This document shows, one piece after another, positions 50,746-64,000 of a stretch of DNA of 64,000 nucleotides. The DNA is from an uncultured Bacteroidota bacterium (GTDB taxonomy: Bacteria > Bacteroidota > Bacteroidia > Flavobacteriales > Flavobacteriaceae). The notes under the pieces were generated by a model. That model had not been told where the DNA came from and ran no database searches. It worked only from the letters and a program-made list of their open reading frames with translations. The DNA lies in contig CACOFE010000004.1 in the NCBI GenBank assembly GCA_902626365.1, positions 14,267 to 78,266 on the forward strand, read 5' to 3'. How positions within the stretch are numbered: the stretch's first letter is position 1; each line of letters opens with the position of its first letter. The position numbers and the translations under genes were made by a program.

Positions 50746-50746
50746 T

Positions 50747-51286: not shown

Positions 51287-51291
51287 TTTTA

Positions 51292-51966
51292 TTAATTATA
51301 AGATTGTTTAAGAATTTCTATGTCTTTCAATAGCCGATTTATCTCCTCAGAATTTGTCCCATCATAAAAACCTCTAATTTGTTTTTCTTTATCAATCAGC
51401 ATGAAATTTTCAGTATGAATCATATCAAATTCATTAAAGTTACTGTCTTCAACAGCAAGATAGGATTTTCTTGCAAGTTCATAGATTTGTTTTTTATCAC
51501 CAGTTAATAGATTCCATTTTGAATCATCAACATTGTTTTCAATGGCATATTCTTTAAGCTGTTCAACTGTGTCAACTTCTGGAATCACCGTGTGAGATAA
51601 AAGTAAAATTTCATTGTCATTTTTAAGTATTTCTTGTAGTTGGTACATGTTTTTAGTCATTACAGGACAGATGTCTTGACATGTTGTAAAGAAAAAGTCA
51701 GCAACATAAATTTTGTCTTTATAGTTAGCTTGTGTAATTTCTTTTCCGTTTTGATTTGTCAACTTGAAATCAGATATTTTATGGTATTTAGCAACATGAA
51801 TTATTGATGAGTCTACTAGTTTCTCATTTACTTCAGCTGGTTGATATATAGGTAATACTTCAATAGGTTTTAGAATTACGTAAAACATATAAACCGCTGC
51901 TGCAGAAAAAATTAAAATGAATCCTACAGTTATAAAATCTCTTTTTCTAAATAGCTTCAATTTCAA
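51292..51966 (-). CDS. SCO1/SenC family copper chaperone (thioredoxin fold)
   Basis: N-terminal TM and the CxxxC motif FTTCQDICP. Downstream His in SHTV. Confidence 0.8.
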   Translation of the reverse strand: MKLKLFRKRDFITVGFILIFSAAAVYMFYVILKPIEVLPIYQPAEVNEKLVDSSIIHVAKYHKISDFKLTNQNGKEITQANYKDKIYVADFFFTTCQDICPVMTKNMYQLQEILKNDNEILLLSHTVIPEVDTVEQLKEYAIENNVDDSKWNLLTGDKKQIYELARKSYLAVEDSNFNEFDMIHTENFMLIDKEKQIRGFYDGTNSEEINRLLKDIEILKQSYN

Positions 51967-51983
51967 TCAAATTTTGTGGTATG

Positions 51984-51991
51984 CAAAAATA
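51984..51991 (-). promoter_or_regulatory. candidate -7 box (TATTTTTG on the minus strand) for the SCO/P19 operon
   Basis: The plus strand reads CAAAAATA. The box ends 17 nt before the ATG at 51966. Confidence 0.35.
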
Positions 51992-52047
51992 CAACAGTTT
52001 TACATTAAATAATCAAAATAGATATTTTTAATTTACTATTAATCAAT

Positions 52048-52055
52048 TACTTTTG
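52048..52055 (+). promoter_or_regulatory. candidate -7 box (TACTTTTG) for rseP
   Basis: Exact TAnnTTTG, 20 nt before the ATG at 52076. Confidence 0.35.
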
Positions 52056-52075
52056 TCAGCTAATTAAACAAGTCT

Positions 52076-53422: not shown

Positions 53423-53423
53423 A

Positions 53424-54164
53424 ATGGGTTGGTTTTATAATTTACTATTCCTTTGGATATTTATAGGGCTATGTACATTTATATATTTAATTTTCTCAAA
53501 AACTATTGCTCCTTACGGAAGACATTCAAATTCTAAATGGGGAATTACTATTGATAATAGGTTGGGCTGGTTTTGGATGGAATTACCTGCTTTGGTTTTA
53601 ATGCCAGTAATAGTTTTAATTTCTCCTGTTCAAAAAAATGAAATCATAATATTAATACTTTCATTATGGATTTTACATTATTTCTATAGAACGATTTTAT
53701 TTCCAATTAAGTTAAAGACTAAAGGAAAAAAAATGCCTTTAGTAATTGTAATTAGTGCATTCATCTTTAATTTATTTAATGGTTTTTTTGTTGGATATGA
53801 GATAGGAAATATATCACAACTTGATTTTGGAATTAACACATTAATTGGACTAATTATCTTTTTTACCGGCATGTATATTAACAGATCTTCAGATAATAAA
53901 TTAATATTATTACGTAAAGAAAACAAAGAATATCAAATTCCTCAAGGGGGAATGTTTAAATATATTTCATGCCCAAATCATTTTGGAGAAATTATTGAGT
54001 GGTTTGGATTCGCAATTATTGTGTTTAATTTAGGTGCTTTGAGTTTTGCGTTTTGGACTGCATTTAATCTGATTCCAAGAGCCATGAATCACCATAATTG
54101 GTATAAAAAATCCTTTGTAGAATACCCAAAAGACCGAAAAGCTGTAATTCCCTTTTTATTTTAA
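53424..54164 (+). CDS. 3-oxo-5-alpha-steroid 4-dehydrogenase / DUF1295-type membrane reductase
   Basis: Polytopic. C-terminal CPNHFGEIIEWFGF motif. Confidence 0.7.
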   Translation: MGWFYNLLFLWIFIGLCTFIYLIFSKTIAPYGRHSNSKWGITIDNRLGWFWMELPALVLMPVIVLISPVQKNEIIILILSLWILHYFYRTILFPIKLKTKGKKMPLVIVISAFIFNLFNGFFVGYEIGNISQLDFGINTLIGLIIFFTGMYINRSSDNKLILLRKENKEYQIPQGGMFKYISCPNHFGEIIEWFGFAIIVFNLGALSFAFWTAFNLIPRAMNHHNWYKKSFVEYPKDRKAVIPFLF

Positions 54165-54168
54165 ATTA

Positions 54169-55287
54169 TTATAAATCAACAATCGATTTATAGCTGGTTT
54201 TATCTGTATCACCTTCAGTATTAAATATTAAAATTCTAGATTTAGAATTTAAACCAATGTGTTCATTTAATTTTGATAATGCAGGATCTTTAATGCATTT
54301 CATAAGACCAGCAAGACCTGCTGCTCCTGATTCTCCTGAAATAATTCTTGCATCATTCTCATTTGGTTTATATAATGTTCTCATTGCATCTTTAACATCA
54401 TCATCGGAAATTGTAAGAACTGCATCACAACCTTTTTTGATGATTTCCCAAGCACTTTTTGAAGGAATTCCACAATTTAAACCTGCCATAATTGTTTTAA
54501 AACTACCTTTTGGTGAAACTCTTTCATTTTGCTTAAACGAGCTTAGTATTCCAGCAGCTTCTTGTGGCTCTATTAAAACTATTTTTGGTTTATTTTTTTC
54601 GTATCTATTTAAATAATACCATATACAAGATGCTGGCCATGAACCTACTCCACATTGAAGAAATATAACATCCACTTTAGGCTTATCAAATAAATTAATT
54701 GAGTCTTCCATTTCTTTGAAATGAGTTAAATAGCCTGACATTATTAAGGCTGGAATTTTTTCATATCCATCCCATGAAGTGTCCTGAACAAGCATCCAAT
54801 TGTTTAAATTACTTTGTTCTGCAGCGTAATTACATGTTTGCTCATAATTCATATTAAGCTGTATAACCTCTCCTCCAAATTGTGCAATTGCATCAATTCT
54901 TTCAGCAGTTGTATCTTTTGGAACATAAACTACAGACTTTTTTTTATTTATTGAGGCAGACCAGGCTACTGCTTTTCCATGATTACCGTCAGTTGCCGTG
55001 CAAAACACTGATATTTCAGGGTAATCCATTAATAATTTTTTTATCGCATAAGAAGCTCCAAGTCCTTTGAAAGCATTTAAATTGAATCTTGTTGACTCAT
55101 CCTTTAAATGTATACTTCGACAACCAAGACTGGCTGATAAACTTTTTAGTTCAAATAAGTGACTAACAGAGTAGTTAGGTAATGTTTTATGAAATTCTAA
55201 AGAATCACTCTCTGATAATATTTGTTCTGTTAAATTATTATCTCTTTTATTATTCGGAATATTTAAAAAAAACTCCATTATAGTCAA
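54169..55287 (-). CDS. fold-type II PLP enzyme, diaminopropionate ammonia-lyase-like
   Basis: PLP-lysine region NAFKGLGASYA and a Gly-rich loop. About 370 aa with the N-terminal extension typical of DAP ammonia-lyases. The subfamily call is from memory. Confidence 0.65.
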   Translation of the reverse strand: MTIMEFFLNIPNNKRDNNLTEQILSESDSLEFHKTLPNYSVSHLFELKSLSASLGCRSIHLKDESTRFNLNAFKGLGASYAIKKLLMDYPEISVFCTATDGNHGKAVAWSASINKKKSVVYVPKDTTAERIDAIAQFGGEVIQLNMNYEQTCNYAAEQSNLNNWMLVQDTSWDGYEKIPALIMSGYLTHFKEMEDSINLFDKPKVDVIFLQCGVGSWPASCIWYYLNRYEKNKPKIVLIEPQEAAGILSSFKQNERVSPKGSFKTIMAGLNCGIPSKSAWEIIKKGCDAVLTISDDDVKDAMRTLYKPNENDARIISGESGAAGLAGLMKCIKDPALSKLNEHIGLNSKSRILIFNTEGDTDKTSYKSIVDL

Positions 55288-55332
55288 ATTATATTTGATA
55301 TTAAAATTAAATTAAATTTTAAAAATATTATC

Positions 55333-55340
55333 TATATTTG
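55333..55340 (+). promoter_or_regulatory. candidate -7 box (TATATTTG) for tRNA-Asn
   Basis: Exact TAnnTTTG, 20 nt upstream of tRNA base 1. A second identical octamer lies at 55290-55297. Confidence 0.4.
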
Positions 55341-55359
55341 CCCACACTGAAAAGTAAAT

Positions 55360-55433
55360 TCCTCCTTAGCTCAGTTGGTTAGAGCATCTGACTGTTAATC
55401 AGAGGGTCCTTGGTTCGAGCCCAAGAGGGGGAG
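55360..55433 (+). tRNA. tRNA-Asn (anticodon GTT)
   Basis: Cloverleaf folded by hand. Acceptor TCCTCCT/AGGGGGA, D stem GCTC/GAGC, anticodon stem TCTGA/TCAGA with loop CTGTTAA, T stem CTTGG/CCAAG with loop TTCGAGC, discriminator G. CCA is not fully encoded. Confidence 0.95.
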
Positions 55434-55465
55434 CAAGCGAAACCGCTACACTACACAGAATAAAG

Positions 55466-55493
55466 CCTTCGAGAAATCGGAGGTTTCTTTTTT
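55466..55493 (+). terminator. rho-independent terminator of tRNA-Asn
   Basis: CCTTCGA-GAAA-TCGGAGG forms a 7-bp stem (one G-U pair) with a GAAA tetraloop, followed by TTTCTTTTTT. Confidence 0.7.
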
Positions 55494-55510
55494 AATAGTT
55501 ACAAGTTAAA
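55491..55510 (-). repeat. degenerate, shortened copy of junction element R3 abutting the tRNA terminator
   Basis: tttaatagttacaagttaaa compared with gtttaatgtatctacaagttagttaaa at 58468. It is followed at 55524-55560 by the same GGCARYTATAT / AAAAAGTGGMAACT motifs that follow the 58468 copy. Confidence 0.5.
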
Positions 55511-55523
55511 GGTACAATTTTTT

Positions 55524-55545
55524 GGCAGTTATATGGCAGTCCTTA
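55524..55545. repeat. 11-bp phased direct repeat (GGCAGTTATAT GGCAGTCCTTA)
   Basis: Related to GGAAACTATAT GGCAACTATAT GGCGC at 58499-58525. Both lie just outside an R3 copy. Confidence 0.5.
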
Positions 55546-55616
55546 TAAAAAGTGGCAACTCATTTGGGTCTCCAAAACAATAATAAAAATTTATTAATTA
55601 ATTTTAGTATGTGAAA

Positions 55617-55799
55617 CTATTTATTCTTCCGCTCATTCTTCCGCTCAATATTAAAAAAATACACTTGACCTAAATGTCCTATAGCTGCAATACCATGACC
55701 ATATTTATAATCAATAAAAATTACTGAAAGCCATCCTCCCATAGCTAGTAAAGAAAAAATAAACAGTAAAGTTTTTTGAGCAGGAGTTAAACTTTTCAT
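55617..55799 (-). CDS. small 2-TM membrane protein with a basic tail, unknown function
   Basis: 60 aa. An R3 element lies directly upstream. The C-terminal ERKNERKNK is encoded by a 12-nt tandem duplication. Confidence 0.55.
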   Translation of the reverse strand: MKSLTPAQKTLLFIFSLLAMGGWLSVIFIDYKYGHGIAAIGHLGQVYFFNIERKNERKNK

Positions 55800-55810
55800 T
55801 ATAATCCGTT

Positions 55811-55841
55811 GTTTAATATATCTACAAGTTAATTAAAAAGT
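55811..55841 (-). repeat. junction element R3, copy 1 (31 nt)
   Basis: gtttaatatatctacaagttaattaaaaagt, 29/31 identical to 58468-58498. It ends 11 nt upstream of the ATG at 55799. The next 15 nt (tgtttacggtttatt) resemble the inner part of R2. Confidence 0.8.
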
Positions 55842-55870
55842 TGTTTACGGTTTATTGTATATTGGTTTTT

Positions 55871-56797
55871 TTATCCTCCAAGATTGAAATCATCTGATGG
55901 GATACCTTTAAAATATCGAGGAATCCCTGGAAAATCATCAGTTATTATGTAGTAATATATTCCATCTGGATATTCAGGAGTTTTCCCTTCTCGACCATTG
56001 GCCTCGTCAAGTGAACCCAATTCACTTATGTATTCGTAGTCATTTACATAAACTCCGTTATATTCATCGCAGGGAGCAGATATTCCATCTCCTGGTCTAA
56101 AACCTGTTTTTAACCTATAACTCGTTGTCATTTCTATTATAGAAGATGTTTCATCAAAAGGGTCAGAAAAGGCATATTTGTAGTAAATTGGAAAACCATC
56201 AGCTGCATATCCAATTAAATTCATTGTATTTGAAGACAGGCTATCTAAGTAACTAATTGGTGCTCCGTGATAATGATATTGACCAGATGGTTGAACGTGA
56301 CCATTATTACAATCTAATCCTAATGGTGTATTTGTTGCTTCTAAATTCCAATCCCAATTTGCATTTGGACTATCAAGTCCCTCGTGTGGAAAAGGTTCAG
56401 CAGCTACTGGGTCCAACTCTATACCGTTTAACATTATACCAAATGAATAATTTGGCCCATTTGAACCTTGTAAAGGAATTAAACTTTGAGCAATGACAGG
56501 ACTAATAGGTAAATTATAAACGAGGTTCTGCTCAGAAATTGAATGCGGATTTAATGCTCCCTGAACATTACCAAATAGACCAACCATATGATTAGGAATA
56601 CTATTTGAGGATATTATTCTTGAATTTTCTGTAATATTATGGCTGTATGATGTTTCAATTGATAAAGACACATTACAATCCCCTCTGGACTGACTGAAAA
56701 TTTGGTCAGAGATGCAGGGATTAACAATCGTTTGGCCTTCATCATCGCTACAACCAAAGACAAGTGGAATAAATACTAATAGTATTAGCTTTTTCAT
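55871..56797 (-). CDS. YHYH-domain lipoprotein
   Basis: Lipobox LVFGC|SDD and the eponymous GQYHYHG motif. Carries the shared MKKLILL head. Confidence 0.8.
   Translation of the reverse strand: MKKLILLVFIPLVFGCSDDEGQTIVNPCISDQIFSQSRGDCNVSLSIETSYSHNITENSRIISSNSIPNHMVGLFGNVQGALNPHSISEQNLVYNLPISPVIAQSLIPLQGSNGPNYSFGIMLNGIELDPVAAEPFPHEGLDSPNANWDWNLEATNTPLGLDCNNGHVQPSGQYHYHGAPISYLDSLSSNTMNLIGYAADGFPIYYKYAFSDPFDETSSIIEMTTSYRLKTGFRPGDGISAPCDEYNGVYVNDYEYISELGSLDEANGREGKTPEYPDGIYYYIITDDFPGIPRYFKGIPSDDFNLGG
56778..56797 (-). repeat. signal-peptide head repeat, copy 1 (intact, YHYH gene)
   Basis: The plus strand reads aatagtattagctttttcat, i.e. ATGAAAAAGCTAATACTATT on the minus strand. Similarity to the 63369-63405 copy extends to 37 nt (35/37). 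Confidence 0.9.
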
Positions 56798-56817
56798 ATC
56801 GCGTGTTGCTCTATAGA

Positions 56818-57303
56818 TTAATAGTCATATTCTACTGCTTGACCTTGAACCCCAATTGACCAGTGAATTTGAACAACCTTCCATTCTCCATTAATTTTTT
56901 TTATCACCCCACTGTTTCTAACATTATTAATCTCTCCCGAATCTTCACCAACTGTGAAAGTGAAATCTAAAAGCTGTGTGTAGGACGCCATATTTCCACC
57001 ATCACTCATTATAATATTTAAATCTCTGGTTTCAAACTTAGGGTTTTTGATTGCCAGTTGTCCAACTATTGAAGGTTCAATTTCACTCCAACCACTCAAG
57101 TATTCTGCTTCGTCTGTTCCGATTAAAACTGCATCATCAGAAAACGTATTTTTCGCCTGTTCTAGACTGCTATTTGTAAAAAAATCAAATTGACTTGAAA
57201 TGAAACTACTTGCTTCATCCAATGTTTTTTCTGGATTAGGGTTTTGCACATTACAACTGTATAATAATGAGGTAATTAATGTAAAATATATTATTCTTTT
57301 CAT
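56818..57303 (-). CDS. NTF2/SnoaL-like (DUF4440-type) lipoprotein
   Basis: Lipobox LLYSC|N. About 140 aa mature protein with the cone-shaped alpha+beta pattern ending in W..VQIHWS. Fold call from sequence pattern only. Confidence 0.55.
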   Translation of the reverse strand: MKRIIYFTLITSLLYSCNVQNPNPEKTLDEASSFISSQFDFFTNSSLEQAKNTFSDDAVLIGTDEAEYLSGWSEIEPSIVGQLAIKNPKFETRDLNIIMSDGGNMASYTQLLDFTFTVGEDSGEINNVRNSGVIKKINGEWKVVQIHWSIGVQGQAVEYDY

Positions 57304-57345
57304 ATTGTTAATTTTAAATATTTATAATTTTTATTTCTTTTAAAG

Positions 57346-57398
57346 ATAGTAAGTTGTTTAGGGTTTGTCAAGTAAGAAACGAGGATATTGATATGTCG
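57346..57398. repeat. junction element R2, copy A (53 nt)
   Basis: atagtaagttgtttagggtttgtcaagtaagaaacgaggatattgatatgtcg, 51/53 identical to 61902-61954. It lies in a divergent spacer between a minus-strand lipoprotein gene and a plus-strand membrane-protein gene. Confidence 0.9.
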
Positions 57399-57460
57399 TA
57401 TGTTGAACTATAAATTATTATGGTACATATTACGTAATACACCTTAAACAAAGTATACGT

Positions 57461-57697
57461 ATGTATTTCTGGTATATAATTTGTATTCGCAATATCACAA
57501 AAACATCATTGATGTACAGTTTATTAAATATTGGCAGATTATATTTAGTTTTGGGTTTTATTTCCATACTGGTTTATGTAAATATTCCAGAAGAAATGAA
57601 TAATTCCACAATGGCAGTATGGATTCTTGGACTTAGTGCAATTTATTTTGTTTTAGGCATAAGAAGACTTATAAGGCACTATAAGGAAAATAAATAA
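57461..57697 (+). CDS. small 2-TM membrane protein (likely start at the internal Met, 57512)
   Basis: The hydrophobic hairpin begins at MYSLLNIGRLYLVLGF. Basic C-tail RHYKENK. Confidence 0.5.
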   Translation: MYFWYIICIRNITKTSLMYSLLNIGRLYLVLGFISILVYVNIPEEMNNSTMAVWILGLSAIYFVLGIRRLIRHYKENK

Positions 57698-57726
57698 CTT
57701 ATATATATCATTTTCATTCTTCAAAA

Positions 57727-57780
57727 TTATCTCAGACAAATACCATTAGAATAAATAATAATAGTATTAGCTTTTTTCAT
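57727..57780 (-). pseudogene. frameshifted/truncated remnant of the lipoprotein head
   Basis: ATGAAAAAAGCTAATACTATTATTATTTATTC has one extra A compared with the intact heads. The corrected frame reads MKKLILLLFILMVFV then stops. No gene body follows. Confidence 0.7.
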
Positions 57781-58112
57781 ATCGATTGTTGTAAAATTAT
57801 TATTCCTAGAATAAGGTAGGCCAGAGCAGGTAGAATTTCAGAAATATTATCTTTTATTTTAATTCTAACACAAACAGCTACAACCATCATAATTATTAAA
57901 ATTACTGAGCTGATAATTAGTATTAAATTTAATTTTAAACCAATCAGTATTCCTATACCGCAGGCTAGTTGAACACTGCCAATCTGCTTTCTTCTTTTTC
58001 CCAACCCCCATCTTTCAAATTCCAAAATCATTTTATTTGAAATAAAAGAATTTATACCATAAGCAATAAAGGATATGGCTGTGAAAACTGTAATTATATT
58101 ATATACGTCCAT
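57777..58112 (-). CDS. DoxX-like small polytopic membrane protein (second of a pair)
   Basis: About 111 aa from MDVYNIITVF, with 4 TM segments. Its ATG overlaps the upstream stop (TAATG). Its own TGA overlaps the ATG of the head remnant (ATGA). The listed ORF extends to 58127. Confidence 0.6.
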   Translation of the reverse strand: MDVYNIITVFTAISFIAYGINSFISNKMILEFERWGLGKRRKQIGSVQLACGIGILIGLKLNLILIISSVILIIMMVVAVCVRIKIKDNISEILPALAYLILGIIILQQSI

Positions 58113-58456
58113 TAAATTAAGCCACAATTAAACGAAGCAATAAATAAAGACATAATCAAAAATATTAGCGATGGAACAAACTTAATAAAAGGATTTTTAA
58201 CTTTTATATGAGAAAGTTGCGCACACAACATGAAGAAAGCCATTGATAGGGACGCATAAATTGTAATTTCATTATACCATAACCCAAGTATTAATAATGT
58301 TGAAGTTGATGTTTTGGCAACCCCTACAAAATTTCTTAATAAGTCTGAATATCCATAATGTTTAAATTCCACTACAATATTGTCATATCTGAAAATCCAA
58401 ACAATAAGAACAGAGATTGCGACAATCAGTTGAAATGCTGTTGAAATATTTTCCAT
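58112..58456 (-). CDS. DoxX-like small polytopic membrane protein (first of a pair)
   Basis: 114 aa with 4 TM segments. An R3 element lies directly upstream. Confidence 0.6.
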   Translation of the reverse strand: MENISTAFQLIVAISVLIVWIFRYDNIVVEFKHYGYSDLLRNFVGVAKTSTSTLLILGLWYNEITIYASLSMAFFMLCAQLSHIKVKNPFIKFVPSLIFLIMSLFIASFNCGLI

Positions 58457-58467
58457 AATTCTAATTT

Positions 58468-58498
58468 GTTTAATGTATCTACAAGTTAGTTAAAAAGT
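58468..58498 (-). repeat. junction element R3, copy 2 (31 nt)
   Basis: gtttaatgtatctacaagttagttaaaaagt ends 11 nt upstream of the ATG at 58456. Confidence 0.8.
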
Positions 58499-58525
58499 GG
58501 AAACTATATGGCAACTATATGGCGC
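58499..58525. repeat. 11-bp phased direct repeats (GGAAACTATAT GGCAACTATAT GGCGC)
   Basis: Tandem units with an 11-bp period, adjacent to R3 copy 2. Confidence 0.6.
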
Positions 58526-58549
58526 TCTTTAGCTTTTTTATATCGTTTC

Positions 58550-59830
58550 TTACTCTTTTATTATTTTATGTGTTGAGGTGTTTATACCGTCTGTAAGATT
58601 GAGAATATATCCCCCTTTCTCTAAACTGGAGATATCAATTTTTGTTGTGAAATATCCTTTCATTACTAGTCTTCCAAATATATCAAAAACTTCTGCTTCT
58701 AATCTTAAATTACTATTTGTGTAAATATAATTTGAAGTGGGGTTTGGGTGTAATTTAATCTCAAAATTTTGCAGCCCATCACTTGACATTGGATTGCATT
58801 CAATTTCATTACTTGAATTTTCATATAATTGACCATTTAAGACATACCATTCTTGCCATTCACCTCCAGTTCCTGTGTTCCAGGAATTAAGATCAAAAGA
58901 GTTCTCACCATTCACAGTACCTTTAATATTATAAACTTTTATTGCTTGATAGTCTGCATTCCACTCTAATGGCACATTCGGCGAGGAAATTTCAGGATAA
59001 TTATTCGAAATCTCACAATTTACCTGTAAAAAATATGCGTTATCATCATAATTTGGAAACTCTCCGAAAACCCTAGCGTTTCCGTTTTGGTCAATACAAA
59101 CAGCCGTATACTCATCACAAGCTACACCAAATACAGGAGTTCCATAGTCTGTCAGTATTCGTGACATAAAAACAATGTGACGTCCCTTTCTTTCAGGATC
59201 GTCATAGTGTTGATCAGTAATTACATTAGATAAATAATCAACCTCTAAAAAAGGTAAATTATCAACGGTAACTGAGACATTATAAGGGTTAGACAATGCT
59301 TCACTTGATGTAACTGTCCCATTTTGGGCAGTAAAGTAATATTCACCCATTATTGCCATACCTGCGCTAGTACCACCCACTGCAATATTTCTTTCAGAAA
59401 TAGCTTGATTAATTAATGTATTGAGTTGAGTGCCTCTAAAATAATTAACATAATTCCATTGATTTCCCCCTGCAAACCATATAGCCTCAGCATTCAAAAC
59501 TTTATTGTGAATATATGACTCATCTGCAGCAGAACTATTATTAAGCACTATGGTTTCAACAGAATTAACATTTACACCCAATTCGCTAAATAAATAATTA
59601 TTATAACCATCGCTTCCAGATGTTCTCAAAACTAATATATCACCACCATTAGAGCGCTCCAAAAACCAAGTCATTGCATTATCGTCCTCTGAAGCACCTC
59701 CCATAAGACAAACACCTCCATTGGTTTCTCGATAAACATCATTATTATTACCAGTGAAATATGAAGTGTAGTTTTGGCTAATAGAATCAATGGATATAAT
59801 TAATAAGATTAATAGTATTAGCTTTTTCAT
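58550..59830 (-). CDS. peptidase S51 / cyanophycinase-like hydrolase with a T9SS C-terminal sorting domain
   Basis: Shared head signal peptide. Nucleophile elbow VGGTSAGMAIMG. The last 70 aa or so (LHPNPTSNYIY...FDIFGRLV...GGYILNL) look like a Por/T9SS CTD. Confidence 0.75.
   Translation of the reverse strand: MKKLILLILLIISIDSISQNYTSYFTGNNNDVYRETNGGVCLMGGASEDDNAMTWFLERSNGGDILVLRTSGSDGYNNYLFSELGVNVNSVETIVLNNSSAADESYIHNKVLNAEAIWFAGGNQWNYVNYFRGTQLNTLINQAISERNIAVGGTSAGMAIMGEYYFTAQNGTVTSSEALSNPYNVSVTVDNLPFLEVDYLSNVITDQHYDDPERKGRHIVFMSRILTDYGTPVFGVACDEYTAVCIDQNGNARVFGEFPNYDDNAYFLQVNCEISNNYPEISSPNVPLEWNADYQAIKVYNIKGTVNGENSFDLNSWNTGTGGEWQEWYVLNGQLYENSSNEIECNPMSSDGLQNFEIKLHPNPTSNYIYTNSNLRLEAEVFDIFGRLVMKGYFTTKIDISSLEKGGYILNLTDGINTSTHKIIKE
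59811..59830 (-). repeat. signal-peptide head repeat, copy 3 (intact, S51 gene)
   Basis: Exact 20-mer aatagtattagctttttcat. Confidence 0.9.
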
Positions 59831-59843
59831 AAATTAAGATGGT

Positions 59844-60398
59844 TTATTTGACGGCTTTAATATATTCTATTTCTAAATTAAATCTACCTTCCTGTTTGTC
59901 AGAAATATGAAGGCTTAACGAATTTACTTTCTCAAGATCCAAGTCTGGATAGTTTGAATATGTATATCCCCTCCAAGTTGCTCTAAAATCTTCAACTGGA
60001 AGTTTTACAATTATCCATTCATTTTTTTGAGACTTAAAATCACAGGAATAGGAAGCTCGAATATTTTTTTGCCTTAATCTAAGTTTATAATTATTCCCAT
60101 CCCCCTTTAATTTAATCTCAAAAAACTTTATACCATTGAGATTATGTTTTCCAATATCTAGCCTTGACGAAGCAAATCCCCCGTTATTTTCAAGAGATAA
60201 ATTACCTCTAAAAATTAAATGTTTTTTGTCATTAATTAGAACAGTAGAGTTGGAAATACCCCCCATAACATCATCGTTTACGATGGTCCATTTTTTTATT
60301 CCGATTTCTTTAGATGGATTAATCAAATCAAGACTCTGGGAGTTCATAGGGGCTTCAAAAATTAAAGATACAAATAGTAATAGTATTAGCTTTTTCAT
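59844..60398 (-). CDS. CIA30 (complex I intermediate-associated protein 30-like) domain secreted protein
   Basis: Shared head. W.IVNDDVMGGISNS...GGFAS pattern typical of CIA30 domains. Confidence 0.75.
   Translation of the reverse strand: MKKLILLLFVSLIFEAPMNSQSLDLINPSKEIGIKKWTIVNDDVMGGISNSTVLINDKKHLIFRGNLSLENNGGFASSRLDIGKHNLNGIKFFEIKLKGDGNNYKLRLRQKNIRASYSCDFKSQKNEWIIVKLPVEDFRATWRGYTYSNYPDLDLEKVNSLSLHISDKQEGRFNLEIEYIKAVK
60379..60398 (-). repeat. signal-peptide head repeat, copy 4 (intact, CIA30 gene)
   Basis: Exact 20-mer. The upstream leader TAGAGCAACATACGAT (60399-60414) matches TAGAGCAACACGCGAT at 56798-56813. Confidence 0.9.
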
Positions 60399-60411
60399 AT
60401 CGTATGTTGCT

Positions 60412-60657
60412 CTAATATAATAGACTTTTTAAATAGTCAACAATCATATCATAATAACCATTAACATTAAAATAAAAAAGTATAAAAACCCCAATAATAA
60501 TCCCCATGACAGCACCAATTCTTTCTCCTCTCTTAATGTTAATTTCTTTACTTTCAAGCATCATATATTTTGGAATGAATGGACGTATTATTAATACTAA
60601 TAATGCAAAAATGCCTATTACACAGCAAATTATAAATATGTAATCAATGATTTCCAC
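60412..60657 (-). CDS. small 2-TM membrane protein, unknown function
   Basis: 81 aa with two hydrophobic helices. Confidence 0.5.
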   Translation of the reverse strand: MEIIDYIFIICCVIGIFALLVLIIRPFIPKYMMLESKEINIKRGERIGAVMGIIIGVFILFYFNVNGYYDMIVDYLKSLLY

Positions 60658-60688
60658 CTATCAATAAAATTAATATAAATTAATCAGA

Positions 60689-60721
60689 TTAATTAAATAA
60701 TAATAGTATTAGCTTTTTCAT
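60689..60721 (-). pseudogene. decapitated lipoprotein head (MKKLILLLFN then stop)
   Basis: The exact 20-mer head (60702-60721) is followed by a stop after 10 codons, with no gene body. Confidence 0.7.
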
Positions 60722-60846
60722 TTTTTCAAATATTTATATATTAAAAATGCTAAACAAAGCCCAAGCCCAAGCACAATAACAACAAATGAATTATCACTGA
60801 GTAGAGAATCTTTAAGTGTATCCGTATGTAAAAGAGTTTTGTTCAA
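60718..60846 (-). CDS. possible 42-aa single-TM ORF (TTG start) ending LIYKYLKK
   Basis: Below the ORF-track cut-off. Its TGA overlaps the ATG of the head remnant (ATGA). The tail resembles three other small ORFs in the island. Confidence 0.3.
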   Translation of the reverse strand: MNKTLLHTDTLKDSLLSDNSFVVIVLGLGLCLAFLIYKYLKK

Positions 60847-60850
60847 GATA

Positions 60851-60955
60851 TTATTTAACAGCTTTAATATATTTTATTACTCAGCCAAACAACTTTCCAA
60901 ACAAGCATAAAAAATATCTGACTACTGATCTGATTTGTGTAACTATTTTTTTCAT
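60851..60955 (-). pseudogene. fragmentary cassette: head-like start (MKKIVTQ..., 24 codons) plus a CIA30-like 3' tail remnant
   Basis: The leader CCAACATACGATATG is conserved. After an in-frame TGA the frame reads VIKYIKAVK-stop, compared with EIEYIKAVK-stop at the end of the CIA30 gene. The 13-mer GCTTTAATATATT is shared at 59856 and 60861. Confidence 0.45.
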
Positions 60956-60987
60956 ATCGTATGTTGGTTTACTCTAATGTTATAACA

Positions 60988-61191
60988 TTATTTCTTTTTT
61001 AGATTTTTCACTCCTAAATATGTCATATAAAAAAACAAGATAGCTAATGGCGTCTCAGTATATTCATTAAGAAATTCCGTTTCTTTAATTACATTACAAT
61101 AAATGTCATATCCAATCAACCCAACAGATCCAAAATATAAAACTGCGGGGAGATATTTAACCGAGTATATTAGTTTTTCGATTTTATCCAT
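60988..61191 (-). CDS. small 2-TM membrane protein with a basic tail (NLKKK)
   Basis: 67 aa. It starts 4 nt after the stop of the head remnant. Confidence 0.5.
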   Translation of the reverse strand: MDKIEKLIYSVKYLPAVLYFGSVGLIGYDIYCNVIKETEFLNEYTETPLAILFFYMTYLGVKNLKKK

Positions 61192-61195
61192 ATTA

Positions 61196-61216
61196 TCAAA
61201 GTATTAGCTTTTTCAT
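61196..61216 (-). pseudogene. decapitated lipoprotein head (MKKLIL then stop)
   Basis: gtattagctttttcat (16 nt of the head), then a stop at codon 7. Confidence 0.65.
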
Positions 61217-61419
61217 TTTTTTCTTTTGAAAAAATCATATTTTATTAAAACCAATATTATAATAAAGAAAAGCAATGAAAAAAAACATAAACCAATAAAA
61301 TTAAAAATGGTTTCTCCCATGTCTTGAGTGCTAAAACTAGCTGAAGTTAAAATAACTAATGCCATCCATAATGAAGCAATTGAAAGTATAAATAAAAACC
61401 AAGAAAAATACTTATTCAT
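61213..61419 (-). CDS. small 2-TM membrane protein ending LIKYDFFKRKK
   Basis: 68 aa. Its TGA overlaps the ATG of the head remnant (ATGA). Confidence 0.55.
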   Translation of the reverse strand: MNKYFSWFLFILSIASLWMALVILTSASFSTQDMGETIFNFIGLCFFSLLFFIIILVLIKYDFFKRKK

Positions 61420-61449
61420 AACTATAAACGTTTAATTAACTAAAAATTA

Positions 61450-61875
61450 TTAATCAAATATTACTAATTTCAATTTTAAACCCTTATAAGTTTCTGCAAT
61501 TCCTTCAACAGAAGTTTCACTTTGCAAAGAAATTCTAACAAAACCTTCCCCATAACTTAAATAAGAAAATGTTGTATCTCCAATTTCTTTCCATACAGGA
61601 TTGTATTGAGGAAACTGACTCCATCTTTGAGGTCTTTCTTCGGTTGCTGCTCTTTCAATATATGCAAGCACAGCGCCCCCTTCCATTACATCATCATCAA
61701 TTTCGGGAACTTTAATTTCAAAGTTTCCATATTGTTTGTCATCACTAAGGCTTGTTAAATCTCCAAACTCAACAATTACAACTTCAAGTTTTTTTCCAAC
61801 TTCAAATTCTTTTTCAATCTCAATACAAGAAAAAAAGAATAAAGGGATAAATAATAATAAAAATAAATTTTTCAT
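61450..61875 (-). CDS. lipoprotein of unknown function
   Basis: MKNLFLLLFIPLFFFSC| signal, similar at the protein level to the shared head but diverged in DNA. R3 (partial) and R2 lie directly upstream. Confidence 0.65.
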   Translation of the reverse strand: MKNLFLLLFIPLFFFSCIEIEKEFEVGKKLEVVIVEFGDLTSLSDDKQYGNFEIKVPEIDDDVMEGGAVLAYIERAATEERPQRWSQFPQYNPVWKEIGDTTFSYLSYGEGFVRISLQSETSVEGIAETYKGLKLKLVIFD

Positions 61876-61883
61876 AATGTTTA

Positions 61884-61900
61884 GTTTAATGTATCTACAA
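61884..61900 (-). repeat. junction element R3, copy 3 (17-nt core gtttaatgtatctacaa)
   Basis: Identical to the first 17 nt of copy 2 and contiguous with R2 copy B. Confidence 0.75.
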
Positions 61901-61901
61901 T

Positions 61902-61954
61902 ATAGTAAGTTGTTTATGGTTAGTCAAGTAAGAAACGAGGATATTGATATGTCG
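61902..61954. repeat. junction element R2, copy B (53 nt)
   Basis: 51/53 identical to 57346-57398. Again in a divergent spacer between a minus-strand lipoprotein gene and a plus-strand membrane-protein gene. Confidence 0.9.
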
Positions 61955-62002
61955 GCATTAATTAAAATTCACTATTTTAACGAACAACTATTGCATTGAT
62001 AT

Positions 62003-62452
62003 TTGAAAATGTTAAAAATACCCCCACCTCTATTAGTTCTGGTTTTAGTTATTTCTAATTACTTTTCATCTAAAAAAATTGATTTAATTCTCCTGCCAAA
62101 TCAAAACTTAATTTCATTTATTATACTTTTAGTCGGAGTGCTTATTTTAATTAATCCAATTCTTAAGTTTATAAAATCAAAAACTACAATTGACCCGATA
62201 AAGTTTAAAAAAGTTAACAAACTCATAACCTCAGGAATCTATAAATATTCAAGAAACCCTATGTATTTAGGTCTGTTGATGATAGTCATATCAACATCAA
62301 TATTCTATTTGAATATTTTCTCACTTATAACACCTATCCTTTTTGTTTGTTGGATAAATAGATTTCAAATTAAAAGAGAAGAGATTTTTCTCGCCGAAAA
62401 ATTTGGTAAAGAATACATGTTATATAAGACTAAAACAAGAAGATGGATTTAG
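62003..62452 (+). CDS. isoprenylcysteine carboxyl / phospholipid methyltransferase family membrane protein
   Basis: GIYKYSRNPMYLG motif and 4 TM segments. TTG start at 62003 or ATG at 62009. Confidence 0.75.
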   Translation: MKMLKIPPPLLVLVLVISNYFSSKKIDLILLPNQNLISFIILLVGVLILINPILKFIKSKTTIDPIKFKKVNKLITSGIYKYSRNPMYLGLLMIVISTSIFYLNIFSLITPILFVCWINRFQIKREEIFLAEKFGKEYMLYKTKTRRWI

Positions 62453-62585
62453 TGAGACTAATTTTTTTACTTTCATATATATTTTTCCTCTTTTAGCCAA
62501 GAAAATACTCCAGAACTGTCTGTAGTATGTTGCCCTAAACGTTAAAAATTAACTATATTGTTAAACTAATTTTTAAACTTTTATT

Positions 62586-63092
62586 ATGAAAAATATTACA
62601 TACTTATTTACTTTATGTCTGATCTTAACTTCTTGTGGTCAAGAATGTGAGGTTGAGTCCAATGGATTTGCCCCTATGGAGGGTCAAACAGTTATGATGG
62701 GAAGTCAAGCATCAGTTGATGTTGTTATTGCAATGGATAAGGTTTGGGCAGAAAGAGATTATGATGCTTTAAAATCTTTTATTGCAGATGGGGCTAGTCT
62801 ACAATTTTATAATGGTACAACTGCAAGTAATGGAGATGAGTTTGTTGCGATTATTGAGAAACAATATCAGGATGGACTTGCAGAAGGAAATTCTGGGGAA
62901 TGGGTATTTAGATACGCATTTTCTATTAAGCCCTCCAAACCTGAGGGAACAGATCATCCTAACAACAGAGGAGAATGGGTTAATGCTGGGTTTGCAGGAT
63001 CTGATGGAAGTAACTATAATGAATGGTATCAGGTTGAGAATGGAAAAATTATTTCTTGGTCACAAACCAGAGGCGTAACTTCTGCTGAATAA
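62586..63092 (+). CDS. NTF2/SnoaL-like lipoprotein
   Basis: Lipobox LILTSC|G. About 150 aa mature alpha+beta protein ending NEWYQVENGKIISW. A degenerate R2/R3-type leader lies upstream in the same relative orientation (62520-62565). Confidence 0.55.
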   Translation: MKNITYLFTLCLILTSCGQECEVESNGFAPMEGQTVMMGSQASVDVVIAMDKVWAERDYDALKSFIADGASLQFYNGTTASNGDEFVAIIEKQYQDGLAEGNSGEWVFRYAFSIKPSKPEGTDHPNNRGEWVNAGFAGSDGSNYNEWYQVENGKIISWSQTRGVTSAE

Positions 63093-63100
63093 ATTTTTTA

Positions 63101-63147
63101 TTAACTCTATACTAATAAAAATATTTATGATATTAGTATAGAGTTAA
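63101..63147. terminator. perfect 17-bp inverted repeat between convergent genes (bidirectional terminator candidate)
   Basis: TTAACTCTATACTAATA, a 13-nt loop, then TATTAGTATAGAGTTAA. T-rich on both sides. Confidence 0.55.
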
Positions 63148-63177
63148 TATTTTAATTTAAGTATTTAAAGAATTGGT

Positions 63178-63405
63178 TTAGTTGCAGGGTCCATCTTCAT
63201 ATGCAATAACCCCATAAAAATTAAAAGCCTCACAGCTATTTCCATAGGTGTTTCCGTCACATCCGCATACAGGCTGATATTCTTCAGTGCAAGCATAATC
63301 TAAATTGATTAATGACTCATCAACACACATATTTGGCACATCCTCATTATCACTACTACAATTAAATACAAGTGGAATAAATAGTAATAGTATTAACTTT
63401 TTCAT
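63178..63405 (-). CDS. Kazal-type protease-inhibitor-domain lipoprotein
   Basis: Shared head and lipobox LVFNC|SSD. Kazal signature C..EYQPVCGCDGNTYGNSCEA....C. Confidence 0.75.
   Translation of the reverse strand: MKKLILLLFIPLVFNCSSDNEDVPNMCVDESLINLDYACTEEYQPVCGCDGNTYGNSCEAFNFYGVIAYEDGPCN
63386..63405 (-). repeat. signal-peptide head repeat, copy 7 (intact, Kazal gene; 1 mismatch)
   Basis: aatagtattaactttttcat. The 37-nt stretch 63369-63405 matches 56761-56797 at 35/37. Confidence 0.85.
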
Positions 63406-63491
63406 TTTTTAAATTGAATATAGATTAAACATAAAGTTACTATTATCGAGCAAACAATTATAACTTTATTATACCACTTTAACTTTTTCAT
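63402..63491 (-). CDS. possible 29-aa single-TM ORF ending LIYIQFKK
   Basis: ATGAAAAAGTTAAAG start (head-like). ATGA overlaps at both ends. Below the ORF-track cut-off. Confidence 0.35.
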   Translation of the reverse strand: MKKLKWYNKVIIVCSIIVTLCLIYIQFKK

Positions 63492-63664
63492 TTCTTTTTC
63501 TCTTTTTTGAATTTATAAAGTAAATAGATAAGAAATATAATAAATACTACAAGTAGAGTAATTTCTAAATTTTTTTCTGCAAATTTTCTTGCTGCACCAA
63601 TTATAGGTAAATCATCAATAAATTTAAGCAGATATTTAAGAAGTTTTAATAAGAACTTCCCCAT
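63488..63664 (-). CDS. 58-aa membrane-anchored ORF ending LIYLLYKFKKEKKK
   Basis: Translated by hand. Its TGA overlaps the next ATG, and it starts 1 nt after the upstream stop. Confidence 0.45.
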   Translation of the reverse strand: MGKFLLKLLKYLLKFIDDLPIIGAARKFAEKNLEITLLVVFIIFLIYLLYKFKKEKKK

Positions 63665-63665
63665 A

Positions 63666-64000
63666 TTATTTAAATTTTCCTTTTACTTCTGTGAAAAATA
63701 AAAATGCTATAATTACACCATCTAAAAGGATCAATGCATTCTCACTAAATTCTAAAAAAGGGGTAAAAGGCGTTACACTCGTGAGAATATATGAATCATC
63801 TGAAATCACGAAATAACTAATAGCGCCCATTATAAGATAAAATATAAATAACTTTTTACCAATAGGTTTTAGTTTATATAAGAAATACCACATAAAAGGA
63901 ATCAAAATTAAAAGTATAATAAAGAAAATTCCTTCTATTATAGTTGGCTCAGAGTCAACCTCTTCATAAGGAAAATAAGTTTGTTCAACTATGAATAATA
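63666..64000 (-). CDS. membrane protein, 5' end probably beyond the window
   Basis: The frame stays open from 63905 to base 64000 (…EEVDSEPTIIEGIFFIILLILIPFMWYF…). The listed TTG at 63905 may not be the real start. Confidence 0.45.
   Translation of the reverse strand, partial: LFIVEQTYFPYEEVDSEPTIIEGIFFIILLILIPFMWYFLYKLKPIGKKLFIFYLIMGAISYFVISDDSYILTSVTPFTPFLEFSENALILLDGVIIAFLFFTEVKGKFK

Follow-up and report, generated by a model that had tools for sequence, protein, structure and literature searches.

The 64,000-nt stretch of contig CACOFE010000004.1 analysed here (the window), from an uncultured member of the Flavobacteriaceae, carries short, nearly identical repeats ahead of several genes beside a tRNA-Asn gene, which raises the question of what these repeats are and what they provide to the genes that follow them. 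A sequence-only reading had described two of them: R2 (57346-57398 and 61902-61954), whose copies are 51/53 identical and share an exact 32-nt core, and R3, which is 29/31 identical between copies C and D (Table 1), with a 17-nt core at 61884-61900 that makes R2 and R3 contiguous at 61884-61954. These identities were all confirmed in the sequence, as were the distances of 11, 11 and 8 nt from the end of R3 to the ATG codons at 55799, 58456 and 61875 on the minus strand, respectively, the 11-nt units (58499-58524 and 55524-55540) and the echo next to the tRNA gene. A linking piece, AACCGTAAACAACTT, had been placed at 55842-55856 and lies at 55838-55852. For R2, no match is expected in shuffled sequence. 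We consider, with a probability of about 60%, that the repeats represent a modular promoter-leader unit, reused to start transcription units within a hypervariable array of cassettes that begins at tRNA-Asn, with R2, R3 and the linking pieces being segments of one upstream element.

Table 1. Coordinates of the repeat elements and associated features in the window.
Feature	Position	Strand	Details
tRNA-Asn(GTT)	55360-55434	+	ARAGORN; Rfam tRNA, 66.9 bits
Terminator-like hairpin of the tRNA gene	55463-55486	+	terminator scan: 10-pair stem, then T run
Array terminal module	55491-55575	-	CCAAATGA-GTTGCCACTTTTT 55547-55570; 11-nt GCCA units 55524-55540
Copy C	55800-55853	-	heads 60-aa gene; profile E = 2.9e-12; R2tail 55838-55853, R3 55811-55841, box TAACTTGT 55824-55831
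Copy C, predicted start	near 55819	-	leader 20 nt
Promoter-less junction (example)	56777-56812	-	J 56799-56812, one T, then signal-peptide start S (ATGAAAAAGCTAATACTATTA)
Copy B	57304-57409	-	heads SnoaL_3 lipoprotein gene; divergent junction; J 57396-57409, R2core 57367-57395, R2tail 57351-57366
Copy B, variant box TATCTTTA	57341-57348	-	followed by AT-rich, gene-specific leader
Copy D	58457-58498	-	heads two-gene DoxX_2 cassette; R3 58468-58498, box TAACTTGT 58481-58488
Copy D, predicted start	near 58476	-	leader 20 nt
Internal terminal-module copy	58492-58560	-	GTTTCCACTTTTT 58492-58504; two 11-nt units GCCATATAGTT 58502-58523
Second J+S junction	60378-60413		same type as 56777-56812
Orphan S starts	57759, 60701, 61196		
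Copy A	61876-61954	-	full composite heading 141-aa lipoprotein gene; profile E = 3.2e-11; R2core 61923-61951, R2tail 61907-61922, box TATATTGT 61897-61904, leader 17 nt
Boundary motif J (AGGGCAACATACTA)	62523-62536	-	inverted relative to the following plus-strand gene
Degenerate R2tail-box-leader	62534-62585	+	upstream of 168-aa lipoprotein gene

R2 and R3 belong to a single modular element of about 70-95 nt, whose complete form, J-R2core-R2tail-R3-ATG, was seen again in many metagenome contigs, in one metagenome-assembled genome and in five single-cell genomes. Read in the sense of the gene, it consists of a boundary motif J (AGAGCAACATACGA), an optional 29-nt R2core with the 3' end cTTGAC, R2tail (AAACCNTAAACAACTT), a linker of 2 or 6 nt, a box TAnnTTGT and, between the predicted start and the ATG, an unstructured, A/C-rich leader of 17-20 nt. 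Individual modules span 15-95 nt and differ little between copies. Scanning with a consensus model had been proposed, and a search profile made from 143 external copies matched the window exactly four times, always on the minus strand of the island (55801-55865, 57343-57381, 58455-58498 and 61874-61937); the core genome of the window (positions 1-55000, 55 kb) held no copies by profile or repeat searches. The arrangement of copy B was found upstream of the SnoaL_3 lipoprotein gene in 9 of 10 metagenome contexts, and copy A lies at a junction divergent from a methyltransferase gene, with unrelated sequence in place of J.

It had been noted that the box in R3 comes close to the Bacteroidota consensus TAnnTTTG without matching it. 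This is correct: the boxes TAACTTGT, TATCTTGT and TATATTGT fit TAnnTTGY exactly. This pattern, located at -12 to -5, was defined as the SM5 motif of Flavobacterium psychrophilum by transcription-start mapping, with the -7 box backed by reporter mutagenesis (PMC9723704). The match to this experimentally defined motif makes a shared promoter and leader firmer than originally proposed. Where R2tail was anchored independently of R3, TAnnTTGY followed at +2 or +6 nt in 24 of 39 copies, compared with 2.2% per 20-nt window in the background, and TAnnTTTG in none. Among the true copies listed, TA and TTGT are kept, with the two middle positions and the following bases variable; the variant box of copy B fits neither pattern exactly. 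The R3 box is located 29-32 nt ahead of the ATG, and in core genes of the window the canonical TAnnTTTG lies 21-41 nt ahead of the ATG. Copies A and B sit in divergent intergenic regions, which require a promoter. The element is therefore most likely a reusable putative promoter plus short leader that heads transcription units, its activity and start positions being predicted by matching the box to a motif of another genus. The box would act as an SM5-type -7 element about 5 nt from the transcription start, R2core could supply, in its commonest form, a -33-like TTG 20 nt upstream of the box, and the R3 tail would form the 5' UTR. This TTG is spaced by 24 nt, not 20 nt, in some R2core copies, and the common J-R2tail-R3 form has none.

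The likeness to SM5 promoters includes the box pattern, in which a pyrimidine follows the G and TA and TTG lie one base closer together than they do in TAnnTTTG, and the island leader of 17-20 nt, if the box sits at -12 to -5, is near the F. psychrophilum median 5' UTR of 24 nt (PMC9723704). However, the island element belongs to a different, uncultured marine lineage, is a putative promoter only, and has its box within a 60-95 nt unit repeated near-verbatim before many unrelated genes, which is not described in PMC9723704. Folded as single-stranded DNA or RNA, the elements were no more stable than shuffles (z -0.8 to +1.4; gene-sense strands, +0.2 to +1.4), no hairpins or terminal inverted repeats were found in them, and an Rfam search gave no match to the element at E <= 1. 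The lack of a fold agrees with what is known of Flavobacteria, which do without Shine-Dalgarno sequences and need unstructured leaders (PMC6847099).

In the metagenome scan, at least 120 contigs contained the element, with at least 127 unique copies ahead of over 70 different N-termini; every copy had the orientation of its gene, and the box was mostly 16-19 nt from the ATG. Among single-cell genomes and metagenome contigs not selected for R3, R3-like boxes were located 9-12 nt from the ATG in at least 10 gene families. Both element orientations also occurred within single contigs, so the element is tied to the gene and not to the chromosome strand, as had been suggested. An exclusive link to lipoprotein genes did not hold, as the element also heads genes for DoxX, an OsmC-like protein, DUF1643, small membrane peptides and cytosolic-looking proteins; the lineage reuses the unit ahead of many unrelated genes. 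True genome matches were confined to uncultured marine Bacteroidetes/Flavobacteriaceae, plus one 2-kb contig binned as Chloroflexi, which is probably mis-binned. Viral contigs gave isolated matches with no other modules nearby, and these look like chance.

The idea that the element travels with its cassettes was half right: it does head cassettes, but the 141-aa cassette is preceded by four different module combinations among contigs, showing that the modules themselves are exchangeable. More generally, a single gene can carry differing module combinations in different contigs. The degenerate copy reported at 62520-62565 is weak and falls below the threshold of the profile search. Pairwise local alignment with copy A in the same gene-relative orientation gave z = 4.2, matched by 4 of 3000 shuffles. 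A box TATATTGT is present at 62554-62561 (+), 24 nt ahead of the ATG of the 168-aa lipoprotein gene, and the stretch 62534-62585 is kept upstream of the same gene in contig L146. The left end of the degenerate copy (62523-62536) is an inverted J and no part of R2, and it is at this J that the window and L146 diverge.

The array is anchored by tRNA-Asn, whose 3' end faces it, and the same tRNA flanks arrays at three other loci (L026, L038 and L057). An R3-like and 11-nt arrangement does abut the tRNA terminator, as proposed, in the form of a terminal module with an R3-like remnant whose box TAACTTGT is intact at 55501-55508 (-) with no gene behind it. The same module ends the arrays in L005, L026 and L009, with related variants in L038, L035, L029 and L025, and it often follows a truncated signal-peptide start; its internal copy is preceded by a degenerate J and a signal-peptide start remnant (ATAAAAAAGCTAAAGAGCGCC). 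The proposal of a block of roughly 3 kb between direct repeats was borne out: direct copies of GTTKCCACTTTTT, with homology in their flanks, enclose about 2.9 kb (55560-58491), and the single-repeat state was found in the single-cell genome AH-321-D14, where the joined form adjoins tRNA-Asn. Taken by themselves, the 11-nt units of the window do not exceed chance (3 matches, 1.4 expected), but related loci show them to belong to a conserved module. They number from 1 to 3 per copy and do not behave like iterons or regulator sites, being part of the array's terminal module. This 11-nt block is a conserved tRNA-proximal end module, and its internal copy probably marks 2.9 kb of sequence gained at the tRNA end by addition or recombination.

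Other cassettes are joined by J and S, a signal-peptide start conserved at the DNA level, with only 13-20 nt of intergenic space; lacking the unit, they are presumably co-transcribed with their neighbours. J is confined to the island and was not seen upstream of core genes, so its conservation is not explained by a general role in translation initiation. Contigs that have a cassette in common diverge after ACGA, where J ends on its 3' side, and at the end of S. Because of their length (15-95 nt) and near-identity, the modules could double as short homology tracts for swapping cassettes and promoter variants within and between genomes.

Alternatively, the modules, chiefly J and the terminal 11-nt block, could be where a site-specific recombinase acts to capture, excise and reshuffle cassettes in an integron-like manner, with the promoter features being secondary. 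J occurs at nearly every cassette boundary, is always gene-oriented and island-specific, and has four different right-hand partners joined exactly after ACGA. Orphan S starts resemble emptied slots, the terminal module is duplicated around the 2.9 kb block with a joined form in another genome, a 21-nt tRNA-Ala 3'-end fragment lies directly before J inside the array of L007, and cassettes are 91-95% identical between genomes whose cores are 83-86% identical. However, no recombinase was seen in or beside the arrays at about 170 loci (156 clusters of ORFs of at least 170 aa, mostly judged by eye, plus listed Pfam hits and a Pfam scan of 10 non-secreted candidates); the sole tyrosine recombinase found lies between rpsU and a tRNA cluster and is housekeeping-like. 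The elements are without inverted repeats or hairpins, and contigs also diverge where the signal-peptide segment ends and close to the leader. Homology-driven exchange fits these multiple divergence points better than a single crossover point, and we regard recombinase sites as unlikely. Integron arrays likewise hold small, mostly co-oriented, promoter-poor cassettes of unrelated functions, with a short conserved boundary site and a gene order that varies between strains. Unlike in the attC/attI/IntI system, the conserved island site is at the 5' end of the cassette rather than the 3' end and has no hairpin, no IntI-like gene was found at the island arrays, and many cassettes carry their own promoter-like unit.

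Another possibility is that R2core with J, the 11-nt units, or both, are transcription-factor operators co-regulating the island genes, in addition to or in place of a shared promoter. The best-conserved stretch, CAACATACGA-CATATCAATATCCT (J and the 5' part of R2core), precedes any promoter box and exceeds the box region in conservation, pointing to an additional role, for example in binding a protein. An invariant 24 nt, CAACATACGACATATCAATATCCT, with three heptad-like repeats (ACATACG, ACATATC and AATATCC) outconserves its surroundings, and GCCA units recur with 11-12 nt spacing. Nevertheless, R2core is present in only 22 of the 127 copies among the metagenome matches listed and is dispensable upstream of the same gene, the 11-nt units vary in number as described, no conserved regulator gene adjoins the arrays, and the terminal module is present also where no gene follows; such operators are thus improbable as the main explanation. 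A selfish dispersed element (MITE or REP-like) or a structured RNA (riboswitch, leader or small RNA) would account for short, multi-copy, highly conserved intergenic repeats, but is largely refuted by the shuffle-level folding on either strand, the missing terminal inverted repeats and Rfam matches, the empty 55 kb of core DNA, the isolated viral matches, and a strict orientation and fixed start-codon distance that do not suit random insertion.

The proposed promoter-leader unit can be compared with two further systems. Putative mobile promoters likewise place near-identical upstream regions before non-homologous genes within and between genomes (PMC3575422). The island unit differs in being modular (J, R2core, R2tail, box and leader) and extending to the start codon, in being confined to cassette arrays at tRNA genes, and in co-occurring with a second standard gene head, J plus the DNA-conserved signal-peptide start. 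Additive flexible islands beside tRNA genes are known from marine Alteromonas and 'Ca. Actinomarinales' (PMC7771536), and a tRNA-adjacent variable region from planktonic Flavobacteriaceae (PMC4164334). The array is alike in its tRNA-adjacent position with differing small cassettes among related genomes, in growth at the tRNA end, in cross-species cassette sharing and, at least occasionally (L007), in a tRNA-fragment direct repeat. In contrast, the bracketing repeat of the window is a dedicated end module and no tRNA fragment, and conserved expression modules lie at the cassette boundaries, with no integrase seen.

To summarise, this uncultured marine flavobacterial lineage carries the element, most likely a promoter with a short leader, before dozens of unrelated genes; the cassette arrays in which it does so are shuffled and sit next to tRNA genes. 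The element can be seen as a variant of two known phenomena, promoter reuse and additive tRNA-linked islands.

The upstream elements are confined to the island part of the window, past the tRNA-Asn gene. Long operons of ordinary core genes fill the first 55 kb of this DNA (G+C about 30%), while from the tRNA to the end of the window the genes are small, mostly on the minus strand, and many encode lipoproteins or short membrane peptides. Neither pattern searches nor a profile derived from 143 external copies found any of the modules in the 55 kb of core DNA. The core flank and the tRNA-Asn are common to the window and three related array-bearing loci (L026, L038 and L057) and the cassettes differ, so the array can be classed with additive tRNA-linked flexible islands (PMC7771536, PMC4164334). 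A 372-aa PALP-family gene between the last core gene and the tRNA is missing at that position in two single-cell genomes, AH-321-D14 and AG-470-C08, which marks an insertion or deletion on its core-facing flank. Further along, a perfect 19-nt inverted repeat with a 13-nt loop, lying between convergent genes that end at 63092 (+) and 63178 (-), is probably a bidirectional terminator. Exact-protein searches returned no record for the 141-aa, 246-aa, 168-aa and 426-aa proteins.

The repeats described in the sequence-only reading were recovered. The two copies of R2 are identical at 51/53 positions with a 32-nt exact core, and no such matches are predicted by shuffles; those of R3 are identical at 29/31, and its 17-nt core occurs again at 61884-61900, adjoining R2. 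R3 ends 11, 11 and 8 nt before a minus-strand ATG at three genes, and the 11-nt units and the AAAAAGTGGCAAC motif also lie where they had been placed, whereas the coordinate of a linking piece was off by four bases (true position 55838-55852). That R2 and R3 are parts of one element had been deduced from copy A, correctly, as the full form is about 95 nt long. Its modules, named in gene sense, are given in the table together with the positions of the features discussed here.

Modules of the upstream element and positions of features (window coordinates unless a locus is named)
Feature	Sequence or description	Position	Strand
J	(T)AGAGCAACATACGA, boundary motif, 14 nt	56799-56812, 57396-57409, 60400-60413, 60957-60970, 62523-62536	
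R2core	CATATCAATATCCTCGTTTCTTACTTGAC, optional		
R2tail	AAACCNTAAACAACTT		
Linker after R2tail	AC or TTTCAC		
Box	TA(A/T)(C/A)TTGT		
Downstream of box	AGATAC, then leader such as ATTAAACAACTAAAACT, then ATG		
TAnnTTGY boxes		55824-55831, 58481-58488, 61897-61904	minus
TAnnTTGY box		62554-62561	plus
TAnnTTGY remnant		55501-55508	
Copy A		61876-61954	minus
Copy B		57304-57409	minus
Copy C		55800-55853	minus
Copy D		58457-58498	minus
R2		57346-57398, 61902-61954	minus
R3		55811-55841, 58468-58498	minus
Intact signal-peptide starts (S)		56777-56797, 59810-59830, 60378-60398, 63385-63405	
Orphan signal-peptide starts (S)		57759-57779, 60701-60721, 61196-61216, 58529-58545	
Terminal module, terminal copy		55491-55575	
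Terminal module, internal copy		58492-58560	
tRNA-Asn		55360-55434	
PALP-family gene	372 aa	54169-55287	
SnoaL_3 lipoprotein	161 aa	56818-57303	
Inverted repeat	19-nt arms, 13-nt loop	63099-63149	
Loci of further arrays		L025 5891-5965; L064; L125; L077 1375-1752; L041 / L175	

Not every copy carries the full set of modules. Among the matches listed, 45 of the 127 copies have the short form J-R2tail-R3; another short form is J-CTTGTA-R2tail-R3, and in yet another a terminal module takes the place of J-R2tail. The element is always in the orientation of its gene, with 16-19 nt between box and ATG in most copies among the matches listed. The proposal that it is tied to the gene and not to the chromosome strand therefore held, mainly on population evidence. 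The degenerate plus-strand copy put forward in its favour was upheld in part: the stretch 62534-62585, ahead of a 168-aa lipoprotein, is similar to copy A when both are read in gene sense (z = 4.2) and has a box, TATATTGT, 24 nt ahead of the ATG, but it is too diverged for profile detection. The J at 62523-62536 is inverted; the related locus L146 has an inverted J-R2core at the same place, and the window and L146 diverge exactly at this motif. On the opposite (plus) strand, the most conserved part of R2core and J (57383-57398 and 61939-61954) reads GAGGATATTGATATG, in which a Shine-Dalgarno-like GAGGA stands seven bases ahead of an ATG that opens short, non-conserved upstream ORFs preceding divergent genes. 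Shine-Dalgarno sequences are rarely used in this phylum, and the arrangement may be a coincidence.

The same element is found in front of many unrelated genes. When 185,579 species genomes were scanned with an R2 pattern, true matches were limited to uncultured marine Bacteroidetes/Flavobacteriaceae (five single-cell genomes and one metagenome-assembled genome), plus a single 2-kb contig assigned to Chloroflexi, probably by mis-binning. Ten matches in unrelated bacteria, mostly Firmicutes but also Oceanospirillales, Desulfobacter and SAR86, were attributed to chance, as none of the other modules was present. In metagenomes, R2tail joined to R3 was detected on at least 120 contigs, and more than 70 distinct N-termini stand behind the same R2tail-box-leader among the matches listed. 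Within the window, the proteins behind the element are likewise unrelated (a 141-aa protein of no Pfam family, SnoaL_3, DoxX_2 and a 60-aa peptide). Reused or mobile promoters are recognised by near-identical sequence upstream of genes that are not homologous (PMC3575422), as seen here. The identical SnoaL_3 lipoprotein occurs on many marine metagenome contigs with different neighbours each time (10 different neighbourhoods); R2 lies upstream in 9 of the 10 contexts shown, and conservation sets in sharply at the boundary between CAACATACGA and CATATC. For the DoxX_2 pair behind R3, two alternative upstream contexts were seen.

Some element-bearing contigs (L074, L128, L158 and L160) encode defence-like or phage-related proteins (HSDR_N restriction-enzyme domain, DUF1643, DUF2779), in at least L074 directly behind an R3-type element, so the arrays encode more than surface proteins. 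Arrays built from these modules also adjoin tRNA-Ala(GGC), in L025; a further array directly follows a Thr-Tyr-Gly-Thr tRNA cluster, itself preceded by rpsU and a XerC-like recombinase, and another lies beside carotenoid-type genes with no tRNA seen within 8 kb. One genome therefore holds several arrays.

The canonical sigma-A promoter of Bacteroidota has a -7 box, TAnnTTTG, and a -33 TTG/TTTG about 19-21 nt upstream of it. The core genes and the tRNA in the window use TAnnTTTG, 21-41 nt ahead of their starts. For the island element, 39 R2tail copies were gathered without reference to R3, and none of them had TAnnTTTG within 20 nt downstream. The box of the element is instead an exact fit to TAnnTTGY, the SM5 motif located at -12 to -5 in transcription-start maps of F. 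psychrophilum and confirmed by reporter mutagenesis (PMC9723704). This box follows at +2 or +6 nt in 24 of the 39 copies, compared with a background of 2.2% per 20-nt window; copy B is an exception, with the variant box TATCTTTA. Within the box, TA and TTGT are conserved and the two positions between them vary, as do the bases that follow. The TTG of cTTGAC in R2core stands 20 nt upstream of the box when the linker is 2 nt, which is the commonest R2core form, and 24 nt upstream when it is 6 nt; the J-R2tail forms lack an upstream TTG.

If the box is set at -12 to -5, the predicted leader, or 5' UTR, would be 17-20 nt long; the median reported for F. psychrophilum is 24 nt (PMC9723704). Translation start in Flavobacteria depends on weak structure and upstream A residues, not on a Shine-Dalgarno sequence (PMC6847099), which the unstructured element suits. 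Each of the four copies in the window heads a plausible transcription unit, and for A and B, which sit between divergent genes, a promoter is required. Most likely, judging from sequence, R2 and R3 form a promoter, in which R2 would be the upstream promoter segment and R3 would supply the -7 box, the transcription start and the leader. The earlier idea of a shared promoter/leader has gained a candidate promoter box, although the box is TAnnTTGY and not TAnnTTTG, and the element fits a reused promoter (PMC3575422) of the SM5 type.

Other promoter readings were weighed against this one. The reverse complements of J (TATGTTGC) and R2tail (TAAGTTGT) both fit TAnnTTGY and could be taken for divergent SM5 boxes, but the box is lost in common variants of J (GCAACACA, CCAACATA) and hence not conserved. 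A sigma-70-like TTGACA-17-TATCTT in R2 was flagged by a scanner, but the number of such sites in the region equals the shuffle expectation, and Bacteroidota sigma-A is not known to use this promoter type. A sigma-54 reading of TGGCAAcTATATGGCA on the plus strand was judged a coincidence, as it is antisense to the array and a product of the 11-nt periodicity.

Besides the putative SM5-type promoter unit, a second, promoter-less type of junction was found: J is followed by a single T and then by a signal-peptide start whose DNA is conserved (ATGAAAAAGCTAATACTATTA...), and just 13-20 nt are left between genes. This start, ATGAAAAAGCTAATACTATTA(CTATTTATTCCACTTGT), encodes MKKLILLLFIPL, and its DNA is identical, including synonymous sites, among unrelated secreted proteins and lipoproteins. 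Several orphan copies run into an early stop, and no such start is present in the 55 kb of core DNA. J itself is island-specific. It marks almost all cassette junctions, both in the window and in every related array, and its different right-hand partners join exactly after ACGA. R2core was also considered as a decayed signal-peptide start, but the alignment is not significant (620 of 2000 shuffles score as well).

The modules appear in changing combinations. The same 141-aa cassette has four different upstream combinations in different contigs, and contigs with a cassette in common part ways after the ACGA of J, where the signal-peptide segment ends or close to the leader. Across genomes, shared island cassettes are 91-95% identical compared with 83-86% for core DNA (window 57343-61954 and 50169-55567, respectively, against L025, L026, L038 and L041), which suggests that cassettes are exchanged between species. 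This pattern fits recombination at short conserved tracts. Another possibility, to which we give a minority chance, is that a site-specific enzyme exchanges cassettes or modules as part of a dedicated cassette-handling mechanism. However, no recombinase was found in or beside the arrays among the loci examined, and the lone tyrosine recombinase, between rpsU and the tRNA cluster, looks like a housekeeping gene.

It is improbable, in our estimate, that the arrays are a dedicated platform for cassette capture and expression peculiar to this lineage, with a recombinase encoded elsewhere in the genome acting at J or the terminal module. Incoming genes would then be fitted with standard heads, either J and the promoter-leader or J and a ready-made secretion signal, and cassettes would be inserted, excised and exchanged at J or the terminal module. 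Such a platform would be integron-like in function but mechanistically unrelated. In integrons, the imperfect inverted repeats of the attC site fold into a single-stranded DNA hairpin at the 3' end of the cassette, and an IntI integrase and attI stand at the array head. The modules here have no hairpin and are placed 5' of the genes, and the arrays examined yielded no integrase, the distal end of the one in the window lying beyond 64000.

At the tRNA, the array ends in a terminal module of 11-nt units, (AAAGAGTG)CCAAATGA-GTTGCC(ATATAGTTGCC)n-ACTTTTT. This module is the tRNA-proximal end at tRNA-Asn in the window, L005, L026 and L038, and at tRNA-Ala(GGC) in L025, and the echo of the element that had been noticed beside the tRNA is a copy of it. 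Some copies have a truncated signal-peptide start upstream, and beyond ACTTTTT there is either an R3-type box or sequence leading to the tRNA terminator. The comparison of the 11-nt units with iterons or phased regulator sites was not supported, because their number varies from 1 to 3 between copies; their spacings are 11, 12 and 19 nt, and in the window alone they are not above chance. The module was also compared with J-R2tail as a possible diverged form. The right half (ACTTTTTnACTAACTTGT) is clearly shared but the left halves reach only z = 2.2, so a shared origin stays a suggestion.

Between the two copies of the module in the window lie 2.9 kb with the DoxX pair, a 78-aa gene, SnoaL_3, a YHYH protein and a 60-aa gene, flanked by direct GTTKCCACTTTTT repeats, which bears out the block of about 3 kb that had been described as bracketed by direct repeats. 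In AH-321-D14, the internal copy's left half runs straight into the terminal copy's right half, which is how a site lacking the block would be expected to look. A tRNA-derived att repeat, in which the 3' end of the tRNA recurs in direct orientation on the far side of an insert, does not explain the block, as the bracketing repeat is not a tRNA fragment, and no tRNA-Asn fragment was found in the window island or the related loci searched (18-mers, up to 2 mismatches). In the locus L007, a 21-nt tRNA-Ala(GGC) 3'-end fragment (190-210) lies in the array directly 5' of J-R2core, matches the intact L025 gene at 20 of 21 positions and looks like what a past site-specific integration at a tRNA would leave behind.

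As an attC site, a MITE or REP, iterons, a tRNA-derived att repeat or a known structured RNA, the element fails each test. Folded as single-stranded DNA, neither strand of any copy gave a hairpin (z -0.8 to +0.9, MFE -1.4 to -5.6 kcal/mol), RNA folds were no better than shuffles (z = +0.2 to +1.4), the gene-sense strand folding if anything worse than shuffled sequence, and in 50000-64000 Rfam matched nothing but the tRNA at E <= 1. On these results, attC, hairpin and riboswitch readings were rejected. The copies contain no inverted repeats, which together with the lack of a stable fold, the fixed orientation and ATG distance and the absence from the 55 kb of core DNA speaks against a MITE/REP-type repeat; that absence also answers the dispersed MITE-like repeat which the sequence-only reading had set against its own proposal. 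A tRNA origin was rejected because local alignment of the composite element to tRNA-Asn and tRNA-Ala on both strands was no better than shuffles, and a viral origin because three viral-contig scans gave isolated matches without co-occurring modules.

In streamlined ocean bacteria, most strain-level gene diversity is held in small tRNA-adjacent islands. How genes are added to such islands and expressed there is poorly understood, especially where no integrase is visible. The island genes of this abundant uncultured flavobacterial lineage draw on a small vocabulary of nearly identical heads, made up of a promoter-leader unit, a boundary motif and a signal-peptide start conserved in DNA. The modular, standardised cassette heads, the scale of their reuse and the dedicated end module appear to be undescribed in the literature searched. 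If the unit does work as an SM5-type promoter, the array would be built of interchangeable, self-expressing parts, with the short conserved modules as the handles by which strains and species exchange them.
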